64,000 nt of DNA from a bacterium (lineage in GTDB: Bacteria > Patescibacteriota > Saccharimonadia > Saccharimonadales > UBA4665), in NCBI GenBank assembly GCA_021848145.1, contig JAJZMX010000005.1, positions 25,528-89,527 on the forward strand. Reading direction: 5' to 3'. Positions within the stretch are counted from its first letter, which is position 1. Every line of letters begins with the position of its first letter. Positions 5,429-45,763 of the stretch are shown piece after piece. The notes beneath the pieces were generated by a model, which saw only the letters and a program-made list of their open reading frames with translations, did not search any database and was not told where the DNA came from. A program made the translations under genes and the position numbers.

Positions 5429-6055
5429 ATGTATGTTTCTCTTAGCTTAGCTGCAATTGCCCTCTTGTTGGTAGCCAATGAATTTTGGGCTCGTAAAAAA
5501 GGTTCACATAGGGAGCATTCACGTAAAATTGTTCATATACTTGTAGGTAGCTTTGCTGCCTTTTGGCCACTCTTTATGAGTTGGAGTGATATTCGCTTTA
5601 TAAGTTTGGCTTTTTTGGTTGTGGTTGTTTTGTCAAAATCTTTAAATGTATTTGCCTCAATTCATGAAGTTGAACGTTTTAGTGTAGGGGAAATTAGTTT
5701 TGCAATAGCCATTGGGCTACTGACATTCATAACCAAAAATGACTTTATATACGCCGTGTCTATGCTACAGATGGGTTTAGCTGACGGTTTAGCTGCAATT
5801 ATTGGTTTGCACTATGGCAGGGGGAATACATATAAAATACTTGGGCATAAGAAAAGCCTGGCCGGCACCTCAACGTTTTTCGTATGCTCCTTAGCTATTA
5901 TTATAGTTGGCAGCATTTTGGCCAATTTCCATCTTAGTTGGTACTTAGTACTAACTGTTGCAATCCTAGCAACAATTATCGAGAACTTAGCGCTGTGGGG
6001 ATTAGATAATCTTTTCTTACCAATAGTCGTGGCACTTATACTAATACACTCTTAA
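5429..6055 (+). CDS. Polyprenol/dolichol/phytol kinase-like membrane protein (CTP-transferase-1 superfamily)
   Basis: Polytopic membrane protein with LADGLAAIIG..YG and KSLAGTSTFF motifs typical of the CdsA/dolichol-kinase superfamily. Confidence 0.5.
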   Translation: MYVSLSLAAIALLLVANEFWARKKGSHREHSRKIVHILVGSFAAFWPLFMSWSDIRFISLAFLVVVVLSKSLNVFASIHEVERFSVGEISFAIAIGLLTFITKNDFIYAVSMLQMGLADGLAAIIGLHYGRGNTYKILGHKKSLAGTSTFFVCSLAIIIVGSILANFHLSWYLVLTVAILATIIENLALWGLDNLFLPIVVALILIHS

Positions 6056-23738: not shown

Positions 23739-25415
23739 ATGGAAAAAAAGAAGCCACAAAGAAACCAGTATTTTAGTGGCAATACCTCTATTGATGGAAT
23801 ATATCGGCCCGTTACTAATAAAAAGCTACAAATAAATACCCAACCCGTAAGACAAGAGCATACTATAAGTCATTTTTCGAGCACTAATAACCAAAGGAGA
23901 GATCTGGATACATCTGTTAGCCAAACTAATGAACATGAGGTTAGACCCTGGCGATCACCAAGAATACAGGAAAATACCTTAATTAGTTCAGCTTTACCTC
24001 CAAGTAATTCATTCTCCAGAAAATCTCAGCAACCAGTCAAACCTAAATCCAAATTTAAAAAAGCAATAAAGCCTACGGCTATTTCCTTGGGAGTCTTGGT
24101 ACTTGTTTTTGGTATCTGGTTTGGCTCAAATATTCTCGGAAGCATTAATAAGATATTTCATGGCAATGTCTTCTCGGATACAAAGGCCCTATTTAGCAAT
24201 ACTCCACTGAAAGAATCAAATGGACGGGTGAATATATTGTTAGCCGGCAATTCTGTTGGAGATCCCGGTCACCAGGGAGCGGCACTCGCAGATTCAATAA
24301 TGGTTATTAGTTATGACCCAGTGTCCAAAAAAGGCTTTATGTTGAGCATTCCGCGCGACCTGAGAGTGTACATACCCAGTATGGGATACCAGAAAATTAA
24401 CGCCGCTATGGATGCTACGAACTTTCATAAAGCCGGTTTTCCTTCCGGTGGCATGGGTCAATTGCAGGAAATTGTTGAAAATGACCTCGGAATACCTATT
24501 GATTACGAGGCATTAATTAACTATGCAGCTTTTAGGGATGCTGTTAATGCAGTAGGTGGAATCACGGTTAATATTAAAAGCCCCGATCCAAGAGGAATTT
24601 ACGATGCCTTTACTCATTTAAGGTTGCCTAACGGAGAGGATAAACTCAATGGACAACAAGCCTTGGACTTGGCTAGGGCAAGAGGAGATAACGTAGCTGG
24701 AGATGTCTCATATGGTCTTCCGAACAGTGATTTTGATAGGACCATGCACCAAAGGCAGATGCTGAAAGCCTTGTTTAAGAAGGCTATGACCCTAGGTGTA
24801 TTGTCTAATCCGATTAAAATAGCAAACCTATTCAGTAGTTTCAGTAACAATATACAAACCAACCTAAGTCTAGGGGATGTACTAAGTTTAAAGGGCTTAG
24901 CTAATGGTTTAAGTCTTTCGGGACTGCAGTCTACTACGTATAGTTTTGGTGGAAGTAATGCTCTTTTAACTGATTATGTATCCTCAAGCGGGCAGGATGA
25001 CCTTGTACCAGCAGCAGGTAAAAATGACTTTAGTCAACTTAAGCAATATTACCAAAAGCTTGCATCCAATAATCCTGTTAAACAAGAAGGTGCTACTGTG
25101 ACAATATTGAACGCCAGCAACGTCTCCGGACTAGCAGCAAGAGAAAAAAGTGTTTTATCTTCCCAGGGATTTGATGTTACATATATAGGCGATGCCATAG
25201 GAAATTATTCATCGTCTATGATCGTAGATAACAGCAATGGGTCTATGCCGGCAGCTAAAACGGAGCTAGAGAAGGATATCCGGGGTCAGGTAGTGCCACC
25301 TACAAACGGTTCTCAAGAGGCTTCAGAGGCCGTTAACTACTCTTCTAACTTTACGATCATTATGGGTCGAGATTGGGATTCGACAAAGCCAACAGGTATC
25401 CCGGTCCAGAATTAG
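23739..25415 (+). CDS. LytR-CpsA-Psr (LCP) family cell-wall polymer transferase with LytR_C domain
   Basis: TM anchor, RVNILLAGNSVGDPGHQGAALADSIMVISYDP...SIPRDL, and C-terminal TILNASNVSGLAA. Confidence 0.85.
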   Translation: MEKKKPQRNQYFSGNTSIDGIYRPVTNKKLQINTQPVRQEHTISHFSSTNNQRRDLDTSVSQTNEHEVRPWRSPRIQENTLISSALPPSNSFSRKSQQPVKPKSKFKKAIKPTAISLGVLVLVFGIWFGSNILGSINKIFHGNVFSDTKALFSNTPLKESNGRVNILLAGNSVGDPGHQGAALADSIMVISYDPVSKKGFMLSIPRDLRVYIPSMGYQKINAAMDATNFHKAGFPSGGMGQLQEIVENDLGIPIDYEALINYAAFRDAVNAVGGITVNIKSPDPRGIYDAFTHLRLPNGEDKLNGQQALDLARARGDNVAGDVSYGLPNSDFDRTMHQRQMLKALFKKAMTLGVLSNPIKIANLFSSFSNNIQTNLSLGDVLSLKGLANGLSLSGLQSTTYSFGGSNALLTDYVSSSGQDDLVPAAGKNDFSQLKQYYQKLASNNPVKQEGATVTILNASNVSGLAAREKSVLSSQGFDVTYIGDAIGNYSSSMIVDNSNGSMPAAKTELEKDIRGQVVPPTNGSQEASEAVNYSSNFTIIMGRDWDSTKPTGIPVQN

Positions 25416-28269: not shown

Positions 28270-28661
28270 ATTGAGTCTTAACTTAGATTATTAGTAGATT
28301 AAGGGTCTGTAATAATACCCACATAGCCATTGTCTTTTTTATATTTATAAATCTCAAAGCAAGCGCATATTAATCATTCTTATTCGCTTATTCTTAAAAA
28401 GAATAGATACATGGATCTAGCAATTTGGGCGTGAGTGTATCCAATGGGGGGTATGAATGTTACAAAACAGGAACAATTGATCAATGAATGGCTTAAAAAA
28501 CCATTCTTACCGTCCCCATCAGGCCCAAGGATATTTAACTCACAATGAATACAGGGCCAAAATACAAAAGGAAGAAGTGGCGCTCATCATATGAATCATG
28601 ACAGCATATTGATGCAAAGATGCCCATATGCTACACTGAGTTTGTTGCAAGAGGAGTATAT

Positions 28662-28880
28662 ATGCGTACAACAATTACACTAAATGACAAAATCTATAAA
28701 GCTTTAAGGATTCGTGCAGCTGAAAGCGGTGAAACAGTTTCTGCCCTAGTAGAAGATGCTGTTATGGAGCAGGTTCTCGAAGACTTAGATGACTTACAAA
28801 CCGTAAAAGAACGTGAGAATGAGCCAGCTATAGATTTCAAAGACTTCGTGAAAGAACTTAAAGCCGATGGTCTCTTATAG
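28662..28880 (+). CDS. Ribbon-helix-helix antitoxin (RelB/ParD-like)
   Basis: MRTTITLNDKIYKALRIRAAESGETVSALVEDAV is an RHH motif. GAGGAG RBS before ATG 28662. It overlaps the toxin start. Confidence 0.7.
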   Translation: MRTTITLNDKIYKALRIRAAESGETVSALVEDAVMEQVLEDLDDLQTVKERENEPAIDFKDFVKELKADGLL

Positions 28881-29136
28881 AGTTAAAATTAAAAGCTCTG
28901 CCCAAAAAGAAATCCACAAACTTCCAAGCAAAGGTCTGCGAAATAAAGTGGTGGATATAATTGATAGCCTAAACGCCAATCCTTTTCCCGAGGGGTCCAA
29001 GAAAATAAAAGGCTCAAATAATATCTATCGCATCAGACAAGGTACATATCGAATCGTATACCAGGTTTATAAAAACGAGCTACTTGTTCTGATTATTAGT
29101 GTTCGACATCGCAGGGACGTTTATAAAGATTTATAA
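28867..29136 (+). CDS. RelE/ParE-family type II toxin
   Basis: [33 protein letters not shown] is the RelE/ParE C-terminal signature. Confidence 0.85.
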
Positions 29137-29141
29137 GATGT

Positions 29142-29218
29142 TGGTACGCCCGAAGGGATTCGAACCCCCGACCTTTGGTACCGGAAACCAACGCTCTATC
29201 CAGCTGAGCTACGGGCGC
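29142..29218 (-). tRNA. tRNA-Arg (anticodon CCG), CCA encoded
   Basis: Acceptor GCGCCCG/CGGGCGT (G1-U72), anticodon arm TTGGT-TTCCGGT-ACCAA, T loop TTCGAAT. Confidence 0.9.
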
Positions 29219-33167: not shown

Positions 33168-33427
33168 GATTCGAATAGATTGAAGCTGTATTTTAGAAGT
33201 TCTTTAGACAAGGGTAGTTATTGTGCCAGGCTTGGCAGAGGTGATACCTCAAATGTCTCGTGCCACCACAGCAATTCACTCTTGAGACGGTTCCAAGACG
33301 AAACTGGAAGGTGTACCATCGAAACGTTTTTAACGATCACCTCTGTTACTGAAATTCTAAATAATTAGCGATCCTGACTGACTGACTGGATTTACTTCTT
33401 TAAATCGGTTCGAATCCTGTTAGGTCA
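33168..33427 (+). repeat. Repeat family copy 1: inverted short tail (33168-33212), 106-nt core (33213-33318) and long tail (33319-33427) ending in GGTTCGAATCCTGTTAGG
   Basis: Manual alignment to copies at 34224, 42556(-), 36953(-) and 37755(-). Confidence 0.8.
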
Positions 33428-33477
33428 ATCCCATAACTCATCCATGCTTACTAGTTATCTAATGTTATGATTACTAC

Positions 33478-34200
33478 ATGGATCTAAAAATTGTTGATGA
33501 TTTAAAAGTTCTGTTTGAAAAAGATTCGAAGGTCCATGCCATGTGGATTGCTGGATCTGTTGCAGAAGGCAACAATGATGAGCTATCCGACGTTGATTTA
33601 TGGCTGGATATAGACGACAACCAAGACCAGCAAGTACTAGATAAAGTTGAGGGGTTTTTAGCCACTAAAGGAACCATTGACGTCAATTTTGGAGAAGGTT
33701 TAACGCCGCCTTTTACTCATAAGGTTTATCATCTAGCCCAAATGGATCCACTTCATTTTATTGAAATTAATCTTCATTCTCACTCACATAAATTTGGCTT
33801 ATTCGATAGTCTGCGCAAAATAAAAGTATTGTTTGATAAAGACGGTTCAACCGATTTTGAATCTTTTGATGAAGCCAACTATAGCAAAATGCTGAATGAG
33901 CGTAAGCAATTCCTATTAGAAAAGATTGAGTTTGGTGAATTATCGGTCAGAAAAGAAATACAACGCAAACATTTCTTGGAAGCACTGCATAATTACCAGT
34001 TTTGGTTAGTCGAGCCTATAATTGAAGTCATTCGAATTAAACACACGCCATTAAAAATAACTTACGGCTTAAAACATGGCAGCAGGGATCTTCCTAATGA
34101 AGCGGTGGCTGCAATAGAGTCGTTATATATCATCAAATCGATCAGTGACTTGAATAATAAGATCGGTGAGGTGAATGAGCTCGTTAAGCAATATAGGTAG
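33478..34200 (+). CDS. Nucleotidyltransferase (aminoglycoside/lincosamide ANT-like, Pol-beta superfamily)
   Basis: GSVAEGNNDELSDVDLWLD matches the GS-x(n)-DxD NTase motif. A roughly 130-aa helical C-terminal domain resembles KNTase-type enzymes. Confidence 0.65.
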   Translation: MDLKIVDDLKVLFEKDSKVHAMWIAGSVAEGNNDELSDVDLWLDIDDNQDQQVLDKVEGFLATKGTIDVNFGEGLTPPFTHKVYHLAQMDPLHFIEINLHSHSHKFGLFDSLRKIKVLFDKDGSTDFESFDEANYSKMLNERKQFLLEKIEFGELSVRKEIQRKHFLEALHNYQFWLVEPIIEVIRIKHTPLKITYGLKHGSRDLPNEAVAAIESLYIIKSISDLNNKIGEVNELVKQYR

Positions 34201-34208
34201 GTTACTCA

Positions 34209-34329
34209 GTTCTAATCCAGCACGGTAGTTACTGTGCTAGACTTGGCAGAGGTGATACCTCAAATGTTTCGTGCCAGCGCATCAGTTCACTATTGAGGCG
34301 GTTCCAAGCGGAGACAGGAAGGGGTACCA
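34209..34329 (+). repeat. Repeat family copy 2 (core 34224-34329), beginning 9 nt after the NTase stop
   Basis: 8 mismatches in 106 nt versus copy 3 by manual alignment. Confidence 0.85.
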
Positions 34330-34378
34330 AGCATAAGCTTTATAGTATTGCATAAGATCTTCTTGTTATTATTAACGA

Positions 34379-34651
34379 GTGCAGAATTATTTATCACTAG
34401 CTTTGCTAGCAACAGGGTTAGCGTCAGTTGTAGCCGCTTTACCACAACTAATACGCGTCCTAAAGCTAAAAACTTCTCGAGAATTAAGTATTTTTAGTTG
34501 GACTGTTTGGCTACTTTACCAGTGCGTATCAGTAGCATATTCCTTACACATACACGCTAAAGCATACGCTTTGATTAATGTGCTTTGGGTTTGTTTTTAT
34601 GCAAGCATGGTCGTTCTAATAATTAGGTATCGACGTTCCCAAAGACAATAG
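34379..34651 (+). CDS. SemiSWEET / PQ-loop 3-TM transporter
   Basis: 90 aa, 3 TM, PQ motif (VAALPQLIRVLK). GTG start. Confidence 0.6.
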   Translation: MQNYLSLALLATGLASVVAALPQLIRVLKLKTSRELSIFSWTVWLLYQCVSVAYSLHIHAKAYALINVLWVCFYASMVVLIIRYRRSQRQ

Positions 34652-35145
34652 TATTAAGGTTCTGACTTCTCGGACTAGGGCGTACCGCCACGATTTCACT
34701 TCCATTAACCCTACTTGTCACCAAGCAGAATTTAAATTTGCAAAAAGTTATAATTGTTATATGTCTAACAAACAATCTGTGCATATGCCAGTTTTTATAC
34801 TTTTTGCGATAGTTATATTAATCGGTTTAACGGTACTACTTTAGAAATATTTCGAATACTTATTATTTTGTCAGTCTGAAAACTCCGGGGCGTATAGTAT
34901 ATAAAACTTCCTCGCAGTGTAATCTGGGCGTAATTCATGTTCAGACCATAACAAGAGACGATGTTTATTTTTACTATGATAAATTCAGGTTAACGGCCGA
35001 TAACAAAACCGGTCGGCTAACCGACTTTACGACTGACGAAAAAATGCAAGTAACGACTATCGACAAGACCAAGAATATATCAAAAATCAGAGCATTAAAC
35101 TGACATAAAGGATCAGATTTTCACTGGTTTGCACAAAGAAAGTAG

Positions 35146-35175
35146 TTGACGTATTGGTATAACTTTCGTTATACT
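35146..35175 (+). promoter_or_regulatory. Candidate promoter TTGACG-18 nt-TATACT placed 7 nt before the antitoxin ATG (leaderless mRNA candidate)
   Basis: Hexamers at 35146-35151 and 35170-35175. There is no Shine-Dalgarno sequence between the -10 and ATG 35183. Confidence 0.4.
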
Positions 35176-35182
35176 TATTTAC

Positions 35183-35419
35183 ATGAAAACAGCAGTTTCT
35201 ATACCGGATAACGTATACGCTTCAGCTGAAAAACTTGCTAGACGCTTAGGCAAATCACGTAGTCAGCTTTATGCCCAAGCTTTAAGTAATTATTTATCTA
35301 AGCATCAAAAAGAAGGCATAACAACTAAATTGAACGAGATTTATCTTAATAGTGACTCAAGGGTTGATAAAGTACTTGCAAAACTGCAAGCCCAGTCCCT
35401 ATCAAAGGAAGATTGGTGA
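35183..35419 (+). CDS. RHH (CopG-type) antitoxin paired with MazF
   Basis: MKTAVSIPDNVYASAEKLARRLGKSRSQLYAQAL is an RHH motif. It overlaps the toxin start. Confidence 0.7.
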   Translation: MKTAVSIPDNVYASAEKLARRLGKSRSQLYAQALSNYLSKHQKEGITTKLNEIYLNSDSRVDKVLAKLQAQSLSKEDW

Positions 35420-35754
35420 AACGTGGTCAAATCTGGTGGGCAGAATTACCAGAACCAAGTGCTTCAGAGCCAGGGTTTAAACGACCAGTAATTATTGTCC
35501 AGGCGGATGAGTTCAATAATAGTCGCATTAGTACAGTAATAGTAGTGGCAATAACCTCTAATTTGAGGCTCGCTGATGCACCTGGTAATTTACACCTTCC
35601 AAAATCGAAAACTGGGTTAACAAAGGATTCAGTCGCTAATGTGTCTCAAGTACTTACCCTCGACAAGACTTTCTTAACGGAACAAATCGGACGGCTTGAT
35701 AGAGTAACTGTTCAGCAGCTAGATGAAGGCTTGCAACTAGTTCTTTCTCTATAG
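35413..35754 (+). CDS. mazF: MazF/PemK-family endoribonuclease toxin
   Basis: RGQIWWAEL...KRPVIIVQADEFN...VIVVAITSN is the PemK signature. Confidence 0.85.
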   Translation: MVKRGQIWWAELPEPSASEPGFKRPVIIVQADEFNNSRISTVIVVAITSNLRLADAPGNLHLPKSKTGLTKDSVANVSQVLTLDKTFLTEQIGRLDRVTVQQLDEGLQLVLSL

Positions 35755-35823
35755 AACCATGTGACCCAGTTCACGGAAAACCTATTGACAAACTTTATAA
35801 AGTTTTAATATATTTATAAAGTT

Positions 35824-36738
35824 ATGAATTACTCTAAACAACTAAGGGCTATATTAGATGCAAGTGGCTGGACGCAGGAAGAGCTTGCCAAACAATTAGG
35901 TGTATCGTTCGTAACTATAAACTCATGGATTAACGCTCGGGCTAAGCCTCGTAAGAGGGCGCTTGAATCTATACGTATTCTGTACTTTGATGTGCTGGGT
36001 GACAACAGTTTAGATGTAGGCTATCTTGAAGAGCTGAAAGAGAAAATTAAACTTCTTAGCATTAAGCTTTCTCAGATCACTGAAAACAAGGAAGTTTTCG
36101 ATAAACTCGTACTCCATCTGACCTATCATACAAATGTTATAGAGGGCAGTACCATGACGCTTGATGACACAAGAGAAGTTCTTTTCGAAAACAGAGTCCT
36201 AACTAACAGAACGCAAATTGAGCAGGCCGAGGCCAGGAACCACAAAGCCGCACTAGTTTGGCTACTGGGTGCGTTACAAAGCAAGAGTTTTGTAATTGAT
36301 GATAGTTTAATAAAAGGGCTACACCTCAGGCTCATGAATGGCATTATAGAAAATGCAGGACTGTACAGAAACCATTCAGTTCGCATAATGGGTGCGCATG
36401 TTACTGTTGCCGATCATATAAAAGTGCCTGAATTAGTGCATGAGCTGCTTACGAAAATTAATGCTAAGGCTAAAGAAGAAGTTACAGAAAAATTATCTGA
36501 AACTCATGCTATTTTTGAGAAGATACATCCATTTAGTGATGGTAACGGAAGAGTGGGCCGATTACTAATGCTTGCCCAAGCCTTACAAATAGGTATTGTG
36601 CCACCTTTGGTGCTGAAAGAGAGAAGGCAGGCATACTATAAGTATTTAGGGCTTGCACAGACTCAAGATAACGTGATGCCTTTACAGCTTTTTATAGCTG
36701 AATCTATAGTTGCAGCCAATGATCTACTATTTAAGTAG
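35824..36738 (+). CDS. HTH(XRE)-Fic fusion protein (AMPylase family)
   Basis: N-terminal HTH (WTQEELAKQLGVSFVTINSWINARAKP) and the Fic motif HPFSDGNGRVGR. Confidence 0.85.
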   Translation: MNYSKQLRAILDASGWTQEELAKQLGVSFVTINSWINARAKPRKRALESIRILYFDVLGDNSLDVGYLEELKEKIKLLSIKLSQITENKEVFDKLVLHLTYHTNVIEGSTMTLDDTREVLFENRVLTNRTQIEQAEARNHKAALVWLLGALQSKSFVIDDSLIKGLHLRLMNGIIENAGLYRNHSVRIMGAHVTVADHIKVPELVHELLTKINAKAKEEVTEKLSETHAIFEKIHPFSDGNGRVGRLLMLAQALQIGIVPPLVLKERRQAYYKYLGLAQTQDNVMPLQLFIAESIVAANDLLFK

Positions 36739-36747
36739 CAAAAGGCG

Positions 36748-36953
36748 CTAACAGGATTCGAACCAGTTTTAAGAAGTAAATACTCTCAGCTAGGCAGGGT
36801 TGTTAATTATTTAGAACTTCAGAAACAGAGGCGATCAATGAAAAAGTTTTGATGGTACCCCCTACCTGATGTGTTCAGAAAGAAGTATTACCAAGTAATA
36901 CTTGGATTTGCTAAGGATATTGAGTTTGCAAAGTCTTATCTAGGCACTACGCC
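36748..36953 (-). repeat. Repeat family member R_a: divergent-centre core (36853-36953) plus long tail (36748-36852)
   Basis: The ends match the 106-nt core family. The tail aligns with the copy-1 tail and contains CAGGATTCGAACC and TGGTACCCCCT, both identical to tRNA-Arg(TCG) segments. Confidence 0.7.
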
Positions 36954-36961
36954 AGTTTTAT

Positions 36962-37243
36962 CTACTTGCTAGCTGTTGCAAGTTCTTCGTCAACTTTTTC
37001 GCTTAGATATACTTTCATTAACGACTGATATGGTACACCTTTCTCATTGGCTAAAGCTTTAATATGTGCAAGGAGTGGGCCAGGAATCCGCATGGATATA
37101 GATTCAGAGGTCAATTTCAAGTTGGGAAAGACTACTTCCTCAGCTTTAGACCAATCAATATATTCCCCAGAGTCGTGGGTATCCCAAAATTCAACTTCTT
37201 CCTCCTCATTTCTAAAATCAGGTATTTTTTTAAGTTTTTTCAT
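36962..37243 (-). CDS. brnA: BrnA-type antitoxin
   Basis: EEVEFWDTHDSGEYIDW and a C-terminal RHH-like segment (ISMRIPGPLLAHIKALANEKGVPYQSLMKVYL). Confidence 0.75.
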   Translation of the reverse strand: MKKLKKIPDFRNEEEEVEFWDTHDSGEYIDWSKAEEVVFPNLKLTSESISMRIPGPLLAHIKALANEKGVPYQSLMKVYLSEKVDEELATASK

Positions 37244-37526
37244 AATTGCTCCTCTCTATTCTCTTCATATCTCTTACAGATATAACCCTTATTTTTTCGT
37301 CTCTTATCGTAAACGCTACGAATAATAATCTATTGCTCTTTGTTTTACCTAGGCCAGTGAATCTTTGCTCAGACGATGAAGAATGTTTGACGTCTTGTTT
37401 AATATAGAAGGGTTTTCGTACAAATATTTCTTCAGCTTCTTGAGTGGTCACATTGTGTTTAATAAGGTTCTTGTGAATATTACCCGTATCCCATTGAAAA
37501 GCAATTGGTTTAGGCAATACCCGCAT
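37230..37526 (-). CDS. brnT: BrnT-type (DUF497) toxin
   Basis: FQWDTGNIHKNLIKHNVTTQEAEEIF and RVISVRDM signatures. The toxin precedes the antitoxin, as in brnTA. Confidence 0.8.
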   Translation of the reverse strand: MRVLPKPIAFQWDTGNIHKNLIKHNVTTQEAEEIFVRKPFYIKQDVKHSSSSEQRFTGLGKTKSNRLLFVAFTIRDEKIRVISVRDMKRIERSNYEKT

Positions 37527-37586
37527 CTTTATAGTATATTCTTAGTATATACATATGTCAATAGTCTGTTTTAAATAATTGATAAA

Positions 37587-37755
37587 CCCCTAGAGGATTC
37601 GAACAGATTGAAGCTGTAATTCGGGAAGACTTTCAACTGAGGTAGTTGTTCAAATGGTACCCCCTACCTGGTATGTTCAGAAAGAATTATTACCAAGTGA
37701 TGATTGAAATAGCCAAAGAAATTGTGTTGATAGACAGTTTATTGTTCCAGCTTTA
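37587..37755 (-). repeat. Repeat family member R_b: short tail (37587-37654) plus divergent-centre core (about 37655-37755)
   Basis: The short tail aligns with 42383-42450. TGGTACCCCCT lies at 37655-37665. The CCAAG-loop hairpin is shared with R_a. Confidence 0.65.
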
Positions 37756-37845
37756 AGTACTATATTATAAAAACATCTAATTGCCATACCATACTTTCTC
37801 AACTTTTTATTAGGTGATGCCAATCTGTTGTATTATTAGTGTATT

Positions 37846-38391
37846 ATGTCATTAATATTCATTACTGGTATATCTGGTTCGGGAAAATCAGCAGTCTGGC
37901 AAGAACTAAAGAGCAGAGGCTATGAAGCATATGATGTTGATGAAGATGGCTTAGCAAAATGGCATAATAATGACACTGGCTATGTTCACCCTAAATCATC
38001 AGTAAAAGCTCATCAGCGTACCCCAGAGTTTTTAGCAAGTCATTCATGGAAAGTTCCTCGTAATGAAGTAGAGGAATTAGCTAAGCATGCTGTAGATAAG
38101 AATGTCTATTTGTGTGGTGTAGTTGCTAATGAAAACGAGCTTTGGGATTTATTCGGTAAAGTAATTGCTCTAACAGTTGATGAAGATACACTTAGACATC
38201 GCATTAAATCTCGTACTAATAATGACTTTGGTAAATCTGAACACGAGTTCGAGCAAATTATTGGCAGGCAAGAAGACGCAAAAGACTCATATAAAAAGTT
38301 TGGGCATATAACAATAGATGCAACTAGACCATTAGACGAGGTGGTAGATGATGTCGTCGCAATAGCTAGTTCAGGAATTAAAAATGGTTAG
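37846..38391 (+). CDS. P-loop kinase (AAA_18/33, shikimate/adenylate-kinase-like)
   Basis: Walker A GISGSGKS. 181 aa. Confidence 0.6.
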   Translation: MSLIFITGISGSGKSAVWQELKSRGYEAYDVDEDGLAKWHNNDTGYVHPKSSVKAHQRTPEFLASHSWKVPRNEVEELAKHAVDKNVYLCGVVANENELWDLFGKVIALTVDEDTLRHRIKSRTNNDFGKSEHEFEQIIGRQEDAKDSYKKFGHITIDATRPLDEVVDDVVAIASSGIKNG

Positions 38392-39379
38392 TAAATATTT
38401 TGAGCGCCTAGGCTACAAGGATGATAGCGAACTTTTAATCGCAGAAATTAGTGATGGGTATGATTTAGGGGCTGTTCAGGAAGCGTCAGTTTTAACAGTT
38501 GGTTTTGAAGACTGTAATGTCAGAGTTAGAACTGACACTGGACAATTTGTTATTAAAGCATTTGGTAAGTTTCGAGATGACGCAGATATTGATAGATATG
38601 TCGATGTTATGCAAGCAGTTACTGAAGGCGGTGTTCATCACCCTGCCTTACAGGATACTAGAGATGGAGGTGTGCTTTTCAAACACTCAAGTGGTGTTTC
38701 GGCAGTAGCGATGGATTTCATTGAAGGTCATACCTACTTTGATACTAAGACTGTACCGACTGATGAGGAATTAGAACTAGTAGCCGCTGAAGCTGTTAAG
38801 ATTCATGCTCTAGATATAGACCCGCCATACGTCTTTGATTCATGGGCTATCCCACATATCCATAAAATGCATGAAGCTGCCCTACCATTTCTAGATGAAG
38901 GTGGTAGAAAAATAGCAGACGCTGCACTTGCACGTTATGACGCTATTGACCTTAGTAAACTAGAAATGCGGTTTATCCATGGCGATATTATTTCAACTAA
39001 TACTTTACTGGGTAGTGATGGTAAAGTATGGATTCTAGATTTCGCTGTATCTAATGTATATCCAAAGATACAGGAGCTGGCAGTAATTGCTAGTAGCCTA
39101 CTTGCTGGAAGTGAATTTGTGCCACTTGGTCATAGAGTAGAGCAAGTTAAGAAAGCATATCTTGTTGTTGGCGGTAAGCTATCAGATTATGAGCAACACG
39201 CCTTAATGGACTATGCTATTGCAGCAGCAGCTATGGAGTTTATGGGTGGCCATAAAGCTAAGTTTATTGACAAAGAAGAGGTTGAAGAATGTGATTATTG
39301 GATTGATGTGGGCAGGAAAGCACTCCAAGAATCATTAGGGCTATTTGACCATAAACAAGGTGAAGGCAAGAAAAAATGA
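38384..39379 (+). CDS. Aminoglycoside phosphotransferase (APH)/homoserine-kinase-II family kinase
   Basis: Catalytic loop FIHGDIISTNTLL and Mg-binding WILDFA. Confidence 0.75.
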   Translation: MVSKYFERLGYKDDSELLIAEISDGYDLGAVQEASVLTVGFEDCNVRVRTDTGQFVIKAFGKFRDDADIDRYVDVMQAVTEGGVHHPALQDTRDGGVLFKHSSGVSAVAMDFIEGHTYFDTKTVPTDEELELVAAEAVKIHALDIDPPYVFDSWAIPHIHKMHEAALPFLDEGGRKIADAALARYDAIDLSKLEMRFIHGDIISTNTLLGSDGKVWILDFAVSNVYPKIQELAVIASSLLAGSEFVPLGHRVEQVKKAYLVVGGKLSDYEQHALMDYAIAAAAMEFMGGHKAKFIDKEEVEECDYWIDVGRKALQESLGLFDHKQGEGKKK

Positions 39380-40005
39380 TAATCTTCATCTTCGGCGACA
39401 GCATTACAGAAGGTCTTTGGGATAGTAAAGGTGGTTGGGCTGATAGAATTAAGGCATTCGTACAAAGCGAAGAGGTAAAATCTGGAATTAAGAATTATCA
39501 TGAGGTGTATAACTTAGGTGTAGATGGCAATACTACTAAGCAAATAATTGACAGATTTGAATCTGAAACAAAAGCTAGACTATGGCCTGATGAAGAATAT
39601 GCATTTATTTTCGCTACAGGCACTAATGATACTCTGCATAGAAACAATCAAGAGTTTGAATCAACCCCAGAACGTTATAAATCTGAGCTAAATCAATTAA
39701 TAGGACTTGCTAGAATGTACTCATCAAAGGTCATGTTCGTAGACATGCTGCCAGTTGACGAAAACCTAACTAACCCAATTAAATCTTCATCTAGTGGTAA
39801 ATGTTATACCAATGAAAGAATCAGAAGCTTTAATGAGGTTCTTCATGAGGTATGCGATAACCAATCATTAACTTACATAAAAGTCAGCGAAAAGTATCTT
39901 GAGCAAGACTACAAAACGTTACTCGCAGATGGCATACACCCAAATGACCAGGGTCATGAAGTAATTTTTGATTTAGTTGTTGAATATATAAGGGGGCTGC
40001 TATGA
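39376..40005 (+). CDS. SGNH/GDSL hydrolase
   Basis: Block I FGDSITEG, block III GTND, block V DGIHPN. Confidence 0.8.
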   Translation: MIIFIFGDSITEGLWDSKGGWADRIKAFVQSEEVKSGIKNYHEVYNLGVDGNTTKQIIDRFESETKARLWPDEEYAFIFATGTNDTLHRNNQEFESTPERYKSELNQLIGLARMYSSKVMFVDMLPVDENLTNPIKSSSSGKCYTNERIRSFNEVLHEVCDNQSLTYIKVSEKYLEQDYKTLLADGIHPNDQGHEVIFDLVVEYIRGLL

Positions 40006-40901
40006 GCAAAACTATAGAAAAGAAAATCCTTCCTGAATACTTTGAAAAGGTAGCTAGTGGCGAAAAGACCTATGAGCTTAGACTTGCGGACTGGGATTGT
40101 CGGCCTGGCGATATACTAGTATTAAATGAAATTGACCCTAAAACGAGAGAGCTTACTGGTCGTTCATTAAAGCGTAAAGTTGGTTATGTTGGCAAAACTA
40201 AAGATATAGATTTCTTTTCAACAAAAGAGATAGATGAATATGGCTATCAGATAATATCGCTACTTCACGATTTGCCAGAAGTTCGTATTAAGGACGCATG
40301 GTTAGTTAGAGAAAATGTTTCAACCCATTTGCATGAGTTGTGGGGTAAAGGCAAAGAACTTGCAGACGATGAATGGATGGAGAAAAGAGTCAAAGACTAC
40401 CAGAAAGCCTGGAGGCCTTATCAACAGAAAATATTGCAAGGCATGACAGAAACAATAGGCTTATATTTTAGGCAGGACATAATTGATGTTTACATTGCTC
40501 CCTGGTTTAACGCATTTAGTGACCCTATGATAATTGGCGTAATGCGCGAACCAGATGAGTTTATAGACACTCTAACGCATGAGTTAATACATAGACTTCT
40601 TACTGATAACACAACAATCCCACACGAAACCAAGTTACTAGGTGAATGGCAAAAATTATTTGGTAAAAATCATTCATTTTCAACGCTGGTACATATTCCT
40701 GTTCATGCTATACATAAGTCAATTTATTTAGATGTGCTTGATGCTCCTAATAGACTAAAAAGAGATATTAATGGAAATAAAAAGTTCAATGCTACTGATT
40801 ATGTTAAAGCCTGGGATTATGTTGAAAAACACGACTATAAAAAGATTATTGATAAGCTAAAGGATTCATACCTAACCTTGCATCGGAGTGTCAATGAGTA
40901 A
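40002..40901 (+). CDS. ASCH/DUF3850-like N-terminal domain fused to an HExxH putative metallohydrolase domain
   Basis: EKTYELRLADWDCRPGDILVLNE is DUF3850-like. HELIHRL is an HExxH motif. Confidence 0.45.
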   Translation: MSKTIEKKILPEYFEKVASGEKTYELRLADWDCRPGDILVLNEIDPKTRELTGRSLKRKVGYVGKTKDIDFFSTKEIDEYGYQIISLLHDLPEVRIKDAWLVRENVSTHLHELWGKGKELADDEWMEKRVKDYQKAWRPYQQKILQGMTETIGLYFRQDIIDVYIAPWFNAFSDPMIIGVMREPDEFIDTLTHELIHRLLTDNTTIPHETKLLGEWQKLFGKNHSFSTLVHIPVHAIHKSIYLDVLDAPNRLKRDINGNKKFNATDYVKAWDYVEKHDYKKIIDKLKDSYLTLHRSVNE

Positions 40902-41412
40902 CTTCGTATTAGCAATAACAGGCCCTGCAGGCTCTGGTAAAAGTACAGTTGCTAGTAGGCTAGCAAAGCGGATAGAAAAATGCGTGAATATAGACGCTGA
41001 TTATGTAAAGCATATGGTGGCCAATCCTTTTATTTATGATGATTCTCCTGAAGGCATTGTTCAGTGGGAGCTACTTGGTGACAATATAGGACTGATTGCA
41101 AAAAACTTTAACAGAAGTAGCTATAACGTAATAATTAATGGCTATATCAACGAACCCGCCTGGCGCAAAATCTTAGAGCATATTGAGCTAACTCACAAAG
41201 TATTGCTATTACCTGAACTAGAGGAAGTCATAAAACGTGATTCACTAAGACAAGAAAGTGATGCTATGGGCGAGGACGCTATAAGGGTACACCATGACTA
41301 TTTCTCAAATAGTCATTTTTTTGATGATTTCACTAACATTGATTCAACTGCACATACAGACCAGGAAACAGTTGATGATATCAAAAAGAACGTATTAAAG
41401 AATGGTCTATAA
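40888..41412 (+). CDS. P-loop kinase (AAA_33 / chloramphenicol-phosphotransferase-like)
   Basis: Walker A GPAGSGKST followed by the NIDADY segment. Confidence 0.55.
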   Translation: MSMSNFVLAITGPAGSGKSTVASRLAKRIEKCVNIDADYVKHMVANPFIYDDSPEGIVQWELLGDNIGLIAKNFNRSSYNVIINGYINEPAWRKILEHIELTHKVLLLPELEEVIKRDSLRQESDAMGEDAIRVHHDYFSNSHFFDDFTNIDSTAHTDQETVDDIKKNVLKNGL

Positions 41413-41414
41413 AT

Positions 41415-41807
41415 ATGGACTACGAAGGAGTAATAATTGAAGAGAGCCTAAAAGATAAAGGTGTACTAAAACTGGTTGAGGTAGTTACCACTAAAGTTGA
41501 ACCAGTAACCAAAGAACATAAAACTCCCTGGCTAAAACAATGGACATTGCACACTGTTAAGATATCTGAAAGTAATATAGATAAAGTCGCTGAGGTTATA
41601 AGTAAGTCACTTGAACCTAACTACTGGTATGCTGACTTTAAGAATAGCAAGCATCACTACATAATTTTTCCAAACAAAGTATTCAAAGTAGACAGAAGTA
41701 AGCCAGAGCAATATAAACAAGTTAGTAGTTATGGACTAGGTTTAGGTATCCCAGATTACCAACTAGACTTTTCGCCAGTAATAAGACAATGGGAAAGGCC
41801 AGAATAA
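41415..41807 (+). CDS. Hypothetical protein
   Basis: ORF tightly packed within the operon. No motif recognised. Confidence 0.4.
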   Translation: MDYEGVIIEESLKDKGVLKLVEVVTTKVEPVTKEHKTPWLKQWTLHTVKISESNIDKVAEVISKSLEPNYWYADFKNSKHHYIIFPNKVFKVDRSKPEQYKQVSSYGLGLGIPDYQLDFSPVIRQWERPE

Positions 41808-41813
41808 TAGTAA

Positions 41814-42389
41814 ATGGCATTTGACGAAAATAGCTTAAAGCAAGTTATTGATAAAATCAAATCAATAAATAAGCCAATAAAACCCGTAATCATTGGTATT
41901 GAAGGTTTTGGTGGGTCTGGTAAGTCTACTCTAGCTAAGATGCTGAAAGAGAAACTTAATAATTGTGAAGTTATTAGTATTGACGCATTTATTATTAAAG
42001 AAAATGCCCGACAAGCTAAACCACAGGAGGAAACCTTTGACATTACAAGACTAGAGGAACAGGTATTAAAGCAAGCTAGCGGCGATAAGCAAATCAGCTA
42101 TCAAGTTCTTGATTGGGCAAGTAATACTTTAGGTAAAAATATAGATTTGCCGAAAATGGATTACCTAATCATAGAAGGGATAACTTCATTTCACCCAAAC
42201 ATAGAACATTACTATGACTTTAAGATTTGGGTTGATGTACCCATTGAGGTAGCAAAAAGGCGAGGACAATTAAGAGATAAAGGCAACGAAAACGAGGGAA
42301 TGTGGGACAAGTGGGCAGCTTCTGATTTAGCTTATAAAGAAAAATTTCACCCCGATAAAAAAGCTGATTTTAATATCGATAACCCCTAG
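41814..42389 (+). CDS. Uridine-kinase/phosphoribulokinase-family P-loop kinase
   Basis: GIEGFGGSGKSTLAK and LIIEGI motifs. Confidence 0.6.
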   Translation: MAFDENSLKQVIDKIKSINKPIKPVIIGIEGFGGSGKSTLAKMLKEKLNNCEVISIDAFIIKENARQAKPQEETFDITRLEEQVLKQASGDKQISYQVLDWASNTLGKNIDLPKMDYLIIEGITSFHPNIEHYYDFKIWVDVPIEVAKRRGQLRDKGNENEGMWDKWAASDLAYKEKFHPDKKADFNIDNP

Positions 42390-42571
42390 AGGATTCGAAC
42401 AGATTGGAACTGTAGTTTTGGAGTACTTTCGACAGGGGTGATTGTGCCAATGGTACACCTTCCTGTCACCGCTTGGAACCGCCTCAAGAGCGAACTGCTG
42501 CGGTGGCACGAAACATTTGAAGTATCACCTCTGCCAAGTCTAGCACAATAACTACCGTGCTGTATTAGAAC
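42383..42571 (-). repeat. Repeat family copy 3: core (42451-42556), short tail (42383-42450) and 15-nt leader; starts 1-2 nt after the antitoxin stop
   Basis: Manual alignment. The core is enclosed by the inverted repeat ATTGTGC...GCACAAT. Confidence 0.85.
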
Positions 42572-42572
42572 C

Positions 42573-42836
42573 CTATCTGGCAGCGGCCTTATGTAAAACC
42601 GATGAAGCGTAAGTCTGATAGGGTATGCCTTCAGCTATAGCTTTAGCCTTAAGTCTATATAAATCCTGTTCAGATAACCGAATACTAATGTTTCTTGTTT
42701 TATTAAGGGTGGCTTTAGCGGCAGCCTTGGCTTTTGCGTGCTCTTCTTTGGGATTGTTGACCTGAACAAACTCTCCTCGATTGTAGGCATCGAGTAGTTC
42801 CCGTTCATCTGGATCGAGGTCGTAATCTATCATCAT
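42573..42836 (-). CDS. BrnA/CopG-like antitoxin
   Basis: C-terminal RHH-like ISIRLSEQDLYRLKAKAIAEGIPYQTYASSVLH. 4-nt overlap with the upstream toxin. Confidence 0.65.
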   Translation of the reverse strand: MMIDYDLDPDERELLDAYNRGEFVQVNNPKEEHAKAKAAAKATLNKTRNISIRLSEQDLYRLKAKAIAEGIPYQTYASSVLHKAAAR

Positions 42837-43114
42837 AGCTTTTCTCCTTTCAAATACTTTTTGGTGGCTTTTCTACTTGGGATTATAGTTTTTAGGAAGA
42901 TCTTTTCCTCGTCTTCTACATAAGGAACGAGGTATGAATAATCATCTATCCTTACAATATATACTTTTTGATGAGCGTATTTCTTTATATTGGGGTGGTT
43001 GATTGTGTCAAGTAGCCTATCATCATTGATGGCTGCCACAACGTCCTCAAATGAAACCTTCCGTTCACTTTTTAAAATCAAGTTTTTAGACTCATTCCAA
43101 TGAAAAGGTTTCAC
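42833..43114 (-). CDS. BrnT-like (DUF497) toxin
   Basis: FHWNESKNLILKSERKVSFEDVVAAI and FLKTIIPSRKATKKY resemble the BrnT N- and C-terminal signatures. Confidence 0.6.
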   Translation of the reverse strand: MKPFHWNESKNLILKSERKVSFEDVVAAINDDRLLDTINHPNIKKYAHQKVYIVRIDDYSYLVPYVEDEEKIFLKTIIPSRKATKKYLKGEKL

Positions 43115-43143
43115 AAACCCATTATACTACAAAAGATACGTAA

Positions 43144-43220
43144 TGTAAATAATTGGTACCCCCTGCAGGATTCGAACCTACGACCTTCTGTTCCGAAGAC
43201 AGACGCTCTAATCCGCTGAG
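43144..43220 (-). tRNA. tRNA-Arg (anticodon TCG), CCA encoded
   Basis: Acceptor GCCCCCT/AGGGGGT, anticodon arm TCTGT-CTTCGGA-ACAGA, T arm GTAGG-TTCGAAT-CCTGC. Confidence 0.9.
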
Positions 43221-43277
43221 CTAAGGGGGCAAGACTAACGTATACTATCTTATCAGCGGAGGAGATTTTAACAAGCT

Positions 43278-44602: not shown

Positions 44603-45763
44603 ATGCATAATATGAGGCACACTAAATCTAGTTCCCCTGGTAATGCTTCGAGCAATAATTTTGCCAGCCCAACGTTTAGAACATCGTATGAACGGGTTGG
44701 TAATGCTGAAGCTGTAATTGACGAAAAGAGAAATAAACCAAGGATCAGGCGGTGGATTAAACGCACGGTATTAATTTCGGTTGCAATTGTAGTTATAGTT
44801 GGCGGAGTTTTTGGATATGAACTTTATTCTGAAGCATCAAAACTAACGAACCAGCCTAATCCATTTTCTTTATTTACTTCCTTGTTACCACAATCACCTA
44901 AGGAGACTAATGGCAGGGTTAATATTCTTCTTGCGGGCTATTCTGTTGGTGATCCTCATCATCAAGGTGCCCAGCTTACTGATTCAATTATGATAATTTC
45001 GATAAACCCTAAGACTAAGTCTGGTGTTCTATTAAGTGTTCCCAGAGATCTTTGGATTCATATTCCTGGTAATGGCCAAAGTAAAATTAACGCAGCCTAT
45101 GAAGATGGCCAGGCAGAAAACTTTAATGAACCCGGCTACTTTCTTGGAGGTATGGGCTTGCTTGAAAAAGTGGTTAGCCAACGGTTCGGCGTAAAGTTCG
45201 ACTACTACGCATTAATTAATTATGCAGCACTTCGTGACGCTGTAAATGCAGTAGGAGGGATAACAATTAATATTAACAGTCCGGATCCTCGTGGGATCTA
45301 TGATCCATATACTCACTTGAAGTTGCCCAATGGCAAGGTGCATTTAAATGGACAGCAAGCATTAGACTTAGCACGAACCAGAGGTGATGGTCCTGGAAGT
45401 TATGGAATCCCAAATAACGATTTTACACGAACGCAGTACCAACAAAAGATGATAGTGGCGATAAAGGACAAAGCTAGTTCATTGTCTTCCTTCGTGAATC
45501 CAATAACAGTTCTTAAGCTAGTAAATGCAGTTGGTAACAATGTTAAAACTGACCTAAAAATTGGCCAGATGGAGTCTTTATATAGTGACGTTAAAGGCAT
45601 ATCCAACGGTAGTATCAAAGAAGTAACACTGAATAACTATAATGGTCATAATCTCCTGGCCAACCACTATATTGATGGTCAAGATGCCTTAATACCCGCA
45701 GATGGTTTAGGCAATTACGGAGCGATTAAAACGGCAGTAAATAATCTGTTGTACGGCAATTAA
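44603..45763 (+). CDS. LCP (LytR-CpsA-Psr) family protein, second paralog
   Basis: RVNILLAGYSVGDPHHQGAQLTDSIMIISINP...SVPRDL, closely parallel to the protein at 23739. Confidence 0.85.
   Translation: MHNMRHTKSSSPGNASSNNFASPTFRTSYERVGNAEAVIDEKRNKPRIRRWIKRTVLISVAIVVIVGGVFGYELYSEASKLTNQPNPFSLFTSLLPQSPKETNGRVNILLAGYSVGDPHHQGAQLTDSIMIISINPKTKSGVLLSVPRDLWIHIPGNGQSKINAAYEDGQAENFNEPGYFLGGMGLLEKVVSQRFGVKFDYYALINYAALRDAVNAVGGITININSPDPRGIYDPYTHLKLPNGKVHLNGQQALDLARTRGDGPGSYGIPNNDFTRTQYQQKMIVAIKDKASSLSSFVNPITVLKLVNAVGNNVKTDLKIGQMESLYSDVKGISNGSIKEVTLNNYNGHNLLANHYIDGQDALIPADGLGNYGAIKTAVNNLLYGN

Follow-up and report, generated by a model that had tools for sequence, protein, structure and literature searches.

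The tycheposons of Prochlorococcus, 474 of 501 of which carry their own tRNA-specific tyrosine recombinase, integrate successively and leave partial tRNAs scattered through the islands that they build (Hackl et al., bioRxiv 10.1101/2020.12.28.424599). Here we analyze a tRNA-Arg locus from a member of the Saccharibacteria, contained in 64 kb of contig JAJZMX010000005.1 (this whole stretch is referred to as the window), where small cassettes appear to have accumulated behind the 3' end of a tRNA gene, usually ending in a 121-bp element that we call B, with no recombinase gene beside them. Arrangements of this kind can be compared with two further systems. In the VCR-type (Vibrio cholerae repeat) integron arrays of Vibrio, each cassette has a repeat of about 120 bp, toxin-antitoxin genes are plentiful, the recombinase lies outside the cassettes, and the site is regenerated. 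For tRNA genes as integration sites, the sublocation classes of Williams from 2002 are reportedly based on the attP/attB pairs of identified integrases, with identity blocks of at least 17 nucleotides (nt).

Junctions and movement of the cassettes

Eight tRNA genes are present in the window (ARAGORN, Rfam), among which only tRNA-Arg(TCG) and tRNA-Arg(CCG) have GTACCA as their 3' end; the tRNA-Arg(GCG) genes of related loci also end in GTACCA. An earlier, sequence-only reading had put tRNA-Arg(TCG) at 43144-43220, which is displaced by 10 nt from its actual position at 43154-43230 (minus strand), but every recurrence of tRNA-end fragments that it listed was found, at counts far above chance. 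The 3' end of this gene, ...AGGGGGTACCA, reads TGGTACCCCCT on the plus strand (43154-43164), and the same string recurs exactly at 36853-36863 and 37655-37665 and with one mismatch at 34319-34329 on the minus strand (4 matches in the window versus 0.58 expected). Exact copies of CAGGATTCGAACC occur at 33407 (minus), 36752 (plus), and 43166, the last within the tRNA (3 matches versus 0.03 expected), and CCCCTAGAGGATTCGAAC is exact at 37587 and 42383, the tRNA form having two differences (3 matches versus 0.03 expected). The T-loop motif GGTTCGAATCC, with up to one mismatch, has four occurrences outside tRNA genes, all in the island (0.42 expected per window), and a decayed T-arm-like copy reported at 33168 is likewise present (repeat family D2). 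By self-BLAST of the whole window, the repeats are confined to 33.1 to 42.6 kb.

Six junctions (S1 to S6 [Table 1]) have the common core TGGTAC[CA]CC[CT]T, the reverse complement of ...GTACCA-3', which on the strand of the tRNA reads ...A(G/A)GG(G/T)GTACCA, and their arms of 60 to 120 nt are interchangeable. Along the strand of the tRNA (a prime marks a module read on that strand), the proximal part of the array starts with the tRNA, ending in ACCA, and continues with promoter-BrnT-BrnA-B, ending in ACCA; A'-(eight antisense genes)-D', ending in ACCA; A'-BrnT-BrnA-D', ending in ACCA; and C'-(Fic, MazEF, and so on). Modules A and C start, at the end distal to the junction, with a decayed tRNA 3' end extending from the T-loop to the acceptor strand, and B has a T-loop-like 5' end, GGTTCTAATCC, and a 3' part that reads ...GGTTCCAAGCC...GGAAGGTGTACCA. 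The cassette-terminal elements B and D supply the acceptor-end pieces (...GTACCA) with their outer ends, and the T-arm pieces are separate partial tRNA-like copies, found where A and C end away from the junction and at the 5' start of B. The sequence-only reading had seen in these pieces a single tRNA end in permuted order; the pieces exist, but the order is only apparently permuted, because acceptor and T-arm pieces belong to different partial tRNA copies.

Presence/absence variation at this site is evident among strains. Contigs encoding an exactly identical FolC protein show variants of the island: in one of these, L003 (L numbers denote the loci compared with the window), identity to the window is 99.97% rightwards from 43151 and homology stops at 43151-43154; left of the tRNA end, this strain lacks the BrnTA cassette (cassette 1) and has in its place a C-like arm with a nitroreductase gene. 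Strains L001 and L002 diverge from the window within the cargo of cassette 2, and contigs from other samples terminate within repeats. The gap between tRNA-Arg(CCG) and tRNA-Arg(TCG), which is 14 kb in the window, is about 1 kb with one gene in two more distant Saccharibacteria (L023 and L025), which have near-empty sites. In L037, where the tRNA matches that of the window at 100% identity, the gap contains one Phd/PIN cassette and B.

The strongest single result concerns a whole RHH-ParE+B cassette shared by L013 and L021 at 89% identity over 709 nt. It lies behind B in the former and behind a tRNA in the latter, and the homology is bounded by the preceding GTACCA and by the terminal GTACCA of the cassette's own B and extends no further. 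When families are defined on the 110 nt after each ACCA, any given post-junction family is found after a tRNA or after a cassette end. Members of the C' family lie behind tRNA-Arg(TCG) in L003 and tRNA-Arg(GCG) in L014, behind B in L015, L019, and the window, and, again in the window, behind D. Antisense-ParE sequences are preceded by tRNA-Arg(GCG) in L021 and L040, by the tRNA-Arg(CCG) of the window (29142), and, in L013, by a B. A third end type, G, precedes the RHH-ParE cassette of L019, where an intact copy (...TTCTGACTTCTCGGACCGCGGTGTACCA) lies directly upstream. Overall, the RHH-ParE cassette of the window recurs at 75 to 89% identity in four other genomes, L019 among them, standing behind tRNA-Arg(GCG), B, or a G-type end.

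Other units in the window have similarly placed ends. The Fic unit is 94% identical to its counterpart in L014 over 1,020 nt, and in L014 it ends on one side within the first nucleotides of B (2222-2226; TAGAAC at 35752-35757 in the window) and on the other at a T-loop-like motif (about 1207-1231, corresponding to where module C starts in the window). For the MazEF unit, positions 313-939 of L011 show 87% identity, and there B follows; the B behind the window unit is lost. The similarity of these units and of B copies contrasts with FolC proteins that are only 46% identical to that of the window in the B-bearing relatives L037 and L018, indicating that the units are exchanged horizontally. Moreover, the three B copies of the window are 86 to 93% identical to one another, no closer than to the copies of other genomes, indicating that the units arrived separately.

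Serial site-specific insertion at the tRNA 3' end, as the sequence-only reading had envisaged, is supported by these data: the site is polymorphic for insertions, breakpoints fall exactly at ACCA, and the density of short matches exceeds that expected by chance, but neither the permutation nor the scars that were part of that account stand.

The inverted copies of module C bracket positions 33424-36747, whose orientation is opposite to that of the tRNA-proximal array. The region from 33.2 to 36.7 kb was probably flipped at a later time by recombination between these copies, as the whole array would become co-oriented again through one inversion between the two.

On the far side of some junctions there is also a recurrent sequence, (A)GCATAAGC(A/T)TTAT, which directly follows ACCA at 34330 in the window, 6313 in L013, 11487 in L030, and 1794 in L037. 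These four junctions involve two B ends, a tRNA-Arg(CCG), and a tRNA-Arg(TCG), and the cargo beyond is unrelated in each case. The motif may reflect a preference for certain sequences past the junction.

The B element and its reverse-strand reading frame

Thirty-two near-full-length and two truncated copies of B were recovered from about 20 Saccharibacteria genomes and metagenome contigs, the window included. Scans with B-derived patterns yielded 13 stretches from a species-representative genome collection and 14 from JGI metagenomes, 4 of the latter containing no B by BLAST. The 121-bp element has sharp ends: among the 32 near-full-length copies, similarity begins at GGTTCTAATCC and ends exactly after ACCA. 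Across loci, the copies are 75 to 93% identical to the window copy, although conservation within the pattern regions is inflated by the use of B-derived patterns to gather them. In nine loci, including the window, B is situated downstream of, and co-oriented with, a tRNA-Arg gene (TCG, CCG, or GCG), and all of these tRNA-Arg genes end in GTACCA. The three 106-nt cores that the sequence-only reading had described were found at 33213-33318, 34224-34329, and 42450-42556; rather than integration scars, they belong to this conserved element, which occurs in distantly related Saccharibacteria and is under coding constraint on its reverse strand.

All matches to named genomes are metagenome-assembled genomes of Saccharibacteria/Saccharimonadales, with the exception of one contig labeled Dormiibacterota (L021; DATLRC010000009.1). 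This contig bears a Saccharibacteria-type tRNA-Arg/B array and is identical to metagenome contig L040 wherever the two were compared (tRNA-Arg(GCG), the downstream flank, and the sequence after B), and its label is probably a binning error, unless there was a real transfer outside the phylum. A phage or plasmid origin of B received no support, with nothing real in pattern scans of IMG/VR, in INPHARED, or in PLSDB; a 15-mer scan returned 120 chance matches, none containing B, and limited literature searches retrieved no description of the element. In L161, an arginyl-tRNA synthetase gene (5531-7186) lies 3 kb from B, which is probably a coincidence.

Substitutions in B are strongly 3-periodic, numbering 65, 89, and 196 by codon position among 30 distinct copies (P of about 5e-4 by permutation, with the search-pattern regions excluded), and the 20 nt of B outside the open reading frame (ORF) show no periodicity. 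The frame in question lies on the strand opposite the tRNA and comprises 33 codons, (M/V/L)VHLPVSAWNRLKSELLRWHETFEVSPLPSLAQ followed by a stop; 29 of 32 copies have it intact, and all 30 distinct aligned copies have the same TAA stop. The start codon spans the junction and is ATG in 12 copies, GTG in 10, TTG in 8, and CTG in 2. The ratio of nonsynonymous to synonymous polymorphism (pN/pS) is 0.21 in this frame, as opposed to 0.33 to 2.0 in the five other frames. Together, these substitution patterns indicate that the reverse strand of B encodes a peptide of 33 amino acids (aa), MVHLPVSAWNRLKSELLRWHETF..., that is under purifying selection. Upstream of the ATG of copy 3, GGGGTGA is situated 10 nt away, within module A copy 2, a module that overlaps the stop codon of the PRK-like kinase gene.

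The peptide has no relative in Pfam or PDB, and AlphaFold2 predicts a single helix. Searches for a long parent gene returned only tiny ORFs and one spurious repeat protein. The strand of B that is co-oriented with the tRNA was likewise considered and rejected as coding: its open frame has neither start nor stop, pN/pS favors the reverse frame, and its translation has no match among 5.8 billion protein clusters.

Two truncated copies of B (L011, 1810-1856; L013, 3423-3478) retain the first 47 to 56 nt, and both break at or just past a GGCAGAGGTGA motif. A similar motif, CAGAGGTGAT, occurs inverted in modules A and C, 10 to 20 nt before the junction.

Possible routes of cassette joining

The sequence-only reading found no integrase in the 10 kb of the array, an absence that Pfam confirms and that reaches much further. 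No tyrosine, serine, DDE, or HUH recombinase was found in the island, in about 84 kb around it, or in about 40 related loci, the sole exception being an IS3-type rve gene in strain L001. These searches applied Pfam to the ORFs of the island, to 84 ORFs from 13 loci, and to the cassette ORFs of other loci; PHROGs to large uncharacterized proteins; and regular-expression motifs for tyrosine and serine recombinases, and they included 10-kb extensions past both ends of the window. Nor did any of the tRNA-Arg loci examined contain an integrase-bearing relative. It follows that the cassettes cannot be self-sufficient islands of the ordinary kind, and the enzyme that joins them would have to act in trans.

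In some loci, type IV secretion system pilin genes are found near B. Approximately 10 kb to the left of the window start, L163 (1-8339) contains a type IV pilus/competence-like cluster beside recA-recX, with T2SSE/F, N_methyl pilins, and a weak ComP_DUS match, which bears on the entry of cassettes into the cell. The IS3-type insertion of L001 (77-1179, just left of 41490 in the window) consists of an HTH gene and the rve DDE transposase gene; it interrupts the 130-aa gene of the eight-gene block and is the only transposase near the island. In L002 (1-2105, diverging at 41415 in the window), genes for proteins of 203, 167, and 175 aa and for a glyoxalase lie upstream of the 130-aa gene, and this breakpoint is at a gene start and has no repeat, indicating that recombination also occurs away from the tRNA-like junctions.

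The account that we favor (probability, about 0.65) is that the 14 kb separating tRNA-Arg(CCG) from tRNA-Arg(TCG) form an accretion island, built by the repeated, orientation-specific insertion of small integrase-less cassettes immediately after GTACCA, through site-specific recombination by an enzyme supplied in trans. Each cassette would consist of cargo, often with its own promoter, and a distal terminal module (usually B, with D and G as other types) that ends in a mimic of the tRNA-Arg 3' end (...GGTGTACCA). Because of this terminal mimic, each insertion would renew the target, allowing later cassettes to land either at the tRNA or behind any resident cassette, and such renewal would produce junctions with a common core and swapped arms. 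The T-arm-like partial tRNA copies, which mark the inner boundaries of A and C as well as the 5' start of B, are also recombination breakpoints.

Several observations weigh against this account, in addition to the missing recombinase and the inflated conservation of B already mentioned. There is no conserved sequence on the post-ACCA side, which is unusual for the core sites of tyrosine recombinases, and neither an excised circle nor, for any single cassette, an exact pair of empty and occupied sites within a species was observed. As to the peptide, most copies of the ORF have no recognizable Shine-Dalgarno sequence in upstream regions inspected by eye, and gene callers have predicted it only 9 times in 1.8 billion cluster representatives (about 15 billion predicted proteins).

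A bolder version of serial insertion, which we regard as tentative, is integron-like capture, in which the tRNA-Arg end would act as attI and B as attC, and an unlinked enzyme would insert promoter-bearing cassettes after GTACCA. The peptide might then take part in recombination or report it, its start codon being completed by whatever lands beside the junction.

The main rival, which we judge improbable, dispenses with a site-specific enzyme: incoming DNA would be anchored by RecA on B or the tRNA after transformation, and its other end would be joined at GTACCA microhomology (homology-facilitated illegitimate recombination). Natural competence occurs among Patescibacteria, and RecA, RecX, and the type IV pilus/competence-like cluster are encoded just left of the window. 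Both B (121 bp, 85 to 93% identical) and the tRNA (97 to 100%) could provide anchors, no recombinase was found anywhere near the arrays, and the repeat-free divergence of L002 at 41415 attests to other recombination routes operating here. But at least eight combinations of left and right partners meet precisely at ACCA: C' is found behind tRNA-TCG, tRNA-GCG, B, and D, and the ParE cassette behind tRNA-CCG, tRNA-GCG, B, and G. Illegitimate joins would be expected to scatter. In addition, the tRNA and B share only 6 to 11 nt at the join, and 121 bp at 85 to 90% identity is a poor RecA substrate. That so many independent joins fall exactly at ACCA argues for a site-specific step.

Less probable again is single-strand transposition by an unlinked HUH enzyme (IS200/IS605-like or IS91-like), with GTACCA as the target and B as the right end. 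The existence of only one conserved end, the strictly oriented insertion immediately 3' of a short motif, and the lack of target duplications and terminal inverted repeats would all be in keeping with such an enzyme, but no Y1 or Y2 HUH transposase was detected in any locus, there is no conserved left end, and the subterminal hairpin of B is invariant, lies within coding sequence, and shows no covariation.

An integron-type array without integrase, i.e., a cluster of attC sites lacking integron-integrases (CALIN) with B as attC, is very doubtful. The cargo does resemble that of chromosomal integrons (toxin-antitoxin pairs and small enzymes), with a conserved repeat of about 120 bp after each cassette and no recombinase adjacent to the array, but B is conserved in sequence (75 to 93%) and not in structure. 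Its folds do not pair the 5' with the 3' end, and folds and direct reading reveal neither an end-to-end imperfect palindrome nor terminal R''/R' boxes of the GTTRRRY type. Moreover, many cassettes are promoter bearing and antisense to the array, the array starts from a tRNA gene, past which lies folC, and not from intI/attI, and a literature search retrieved nothing linking Saccharibacteria to integrons.

Finally, B is most unlikely to be a structured noncoding RNA gene (tRNA-like or tmRNA-like, with an ACCA 3' end) whose copies make up the repeats: it does end in a hairpin-like segment followed by GGTGTACCA after a T-loop-like start, and pairing reaches 93% in a hand-built four-helix model, G-U to Watson-Crick transitions being numerous on the ACCA strand, but there is no Rfam match at the gathering threshold or at E values up to 5 and none by ARAGORN, folding z-scores are only -1.3 and -2.1, RNAalifold, applied to 3 and to 21 copies, yields -11.6 kcal/mol and a single compensatory pair, covarying column pairs form no helices in an all-against-all scan of 30 copies, 29 to 228 of 500 shuffle controls for the four-helix model reach the observed values, and 3-periodic substitutions are a signature of coding and not of base pairing.

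Cargo of the island and comparison with described systems

The cargo is typical of mobile cassettes, with PIN in 11 ORFs and MazF, Fic, ParE, BrnT, and Mrr also represented in the island and related loci. Strong sigma70-like promoters adjoin two junctions, and that of cassette 1 (TTTACA-17-TATAAT) matches the consensus at 11 of 12 positions. Products of the eight genes in cassette 2 include an AAA_18 kinase, an APH phosphotransferase, a GDSL hydrolase, DUF3850/ASCH, a P-loop kinase, an uncharacterized 130-aa protein, and a PRK-like kinase (Pfam). Module D copy 2, which terminates this cassette, holds a decayed short ORF (MVPPTWYVQKELLPSDD, then a stop) related to that of B, and a decayed A-like fragment (33168-33222) overlaps B copy 1 at the far end of the array. 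At the other tRNA-Arg gene of the window, tRNA-Arg(CCG), the RHH-ParE toxin-antitoxin cassette ends 6 nt from the ACCA end, and neither B nor another end module is visible on its far side. Away from the repeats, two LytR_cpsA_psr paralogues (44895-45557 and 24205-24867) are 62% identical over 680 nt. Coordinates of all features are collected in Table 1.

TABLE 1 Features of the tRNA-Arg island, in window coordinates; junctions are written on the plus strand as left arm, core, right arm
Feature	Position	Strand	Description
Second seed	28603-29218	-	tRNA-Arg(CCG) 29142-29218; RHH-ParE cassette 28603-29141 adjoins its ACCA end
B copy 1	33198-33318	+	Degenerate 5' end; reverse-strand ORF 33218-33319 (-)
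Junction S1	33199-33423		Inverted; C-core-B
Module C copy 1	33319-33423	+	Inverted relative to copy 2, 82% identity; GGTTCGAATCCTGTTAGG at 33407-33423
Nucleotidyltransferase cargo	33424-34208	+	Polbeta/NTP_transf_2 gene 33478-34200 (Pfam)
Junction S2	34209-34329		Inverted; unique-core-B
B copy 2	34209-34329	+	Ends in GGGGTACCA; reverse-strand ORF 34229-34330 (-), TTG start
Decayed G-type end	34661-34689	+	TTCTGACTTCTCGGACTAGGGCGTACCG, after PQ-loop gene 34379-34651; matched to L019 by eye
MazE/MazF (RHH/PemK) unit	35130-35757	+	
Fic unit	35753-36772	+	HTH-Fic gene 35824-36738
Junction S3	36748-36926		C-core-D
Module C copy 2	36748-36851	+ (C' on minus)	Starts with T-arm-like CTAACAGGATTCGAACC, ends at junction
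Module D copy 1	36852-36926	+	83% identical to copy 2; core TGGTACCCCCT at 36853-36863
Cassette 3 cargo	36927-37565	-	Promoter 37561-37533, BrnT 37230-37526, BrnA/CopG 36962-37243 (Pfam)
Junction S4	37566-37728		A-core-D
Module A copy 1	37566-37653	+	Decayed tRNA 3' end at 37585-37604
Module D copy 2	37654-37728	+	Minus strand ends ...CAGGTAGGGGGTACCA; second tRNA-end mimic type, terminates cassette 2
Cassette 2 cargo	37729-42389	+	Eight genes, 37846-42389, antisense to array direction
Junction S5	42364-42571		A-core-B
Module A copy 2	42364-42450	+	Decayed tRNA 3' end AACCCCTAGAGGATTCGAAC at 42381-42400, extends to junction
Reverse-strand ORF of B copy 3	42450-42551	+	MVHLPVTAWNRLKSELLRWHETFEVSPLPSLAQ, then stop
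B copy 3 (121 bp)	42451-42571	-	Minus strand 5' GTTCTAATAC...GGAAGGTGTACCA 3'; terminal module of cassette 1
Cassette 1	42572-43153	-	Sigma70-like promoter 43149-43121, BrnT-like toxin 42833-43114, BrnA/CopG-like antitoxin 42573-42836 (Pfam)
Junction S6	At tRNA-Arg(TCG) end		Unique-core-tRNA
tRNA-Arg(TCG)	43154-43230	-	ARAGORN; Rfam, 68 bits; seed junction of array

Saccharibacteria and other Patescibacteria have tiny genomes and few recognized mobile elements, yet their gene content varies among strains. A tRNA-Arg cassette system would explain the movement of toxin-antitoxin, defense, and small-enzyme genes between organisms whose FolC proteins are about 46% identical. The B element provides a ready marker for such arrays in metagenomes, and the missing recombinase and the junction-overlapping 33-aa peptide are concrete targets.

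The locus retains an intact tRNA gene, has repeat boundaries made of partial tRNAs, and is polymorphic for presence/absence at an att-like site, as expected of a tRNA island, but carries no recombinase of its own. With respect to the sublocation classes of Williams, the junctions resemble known sites in being situated at the extreme 3' end of the tRNA (acceptor/CCA), with other breakpoints at T-loop-like motifs, but the block shared at the ACCA junction is only 6 to 11 nt. Like integron arrays and CALINs, the array combines a repeat of about 120 bp per cassette, toxin-antitoxin cargo, cassettes without a recombinase inside them, and what appears to be site renewal; unlike integrons, it has a tRNA seed, mixed gene orientation, cassettes with their own promoters, and a repeat that lacks attC architecture and is under protein-coding constraint.

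The closest integrase-less analogue is provided by the cis-mobilizable elements (CIMEs) of Streptococcus together with streptococcal accretion at tRNA 3' ends. Like the cassettes described here, CIMEs have no integration genes, are bounded by att-type repeats, and occur in tandem at a tRNA 3' end (PMC5704250). However, CIMEs are decayed integrative and conjugative or integrative and mobilizable elements that exist alongside integrase-bearing relatives, whereas the present loci show no sign of an autonomous relative, a conjugation module, or a decayed integrase, and, unlike CIMEs, the terminal module is conserved across organisms with FolC proteins only 46% identical.

The closest described phenomenon is the tRNA-seeded additive island of tycheposons. 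Both would grow from specific tRNA 3' ends, with newcomers pushing older elements inward, and both have partial tRNA copies between elements, adaptive or defense cargo, and a strain heterogeneity that is highest beside the tRNA. In contrast to tycheposons, no recombinase was found here in any cassette or locus, the units are much smaller (0.6 to 5 kb), and they end in a 121-bp module that mimics only the last 9 to 11 nt of the tRNA and encodes a 33-aa ORF. What is new here is a tRNA-seeded accretion without integrase that is widespread in Saccharibacteria and has an unexpectedly protein-coding terminal module, adding an integrase-less case to the tRNA-seeded island model derived from Prochlorococcus.

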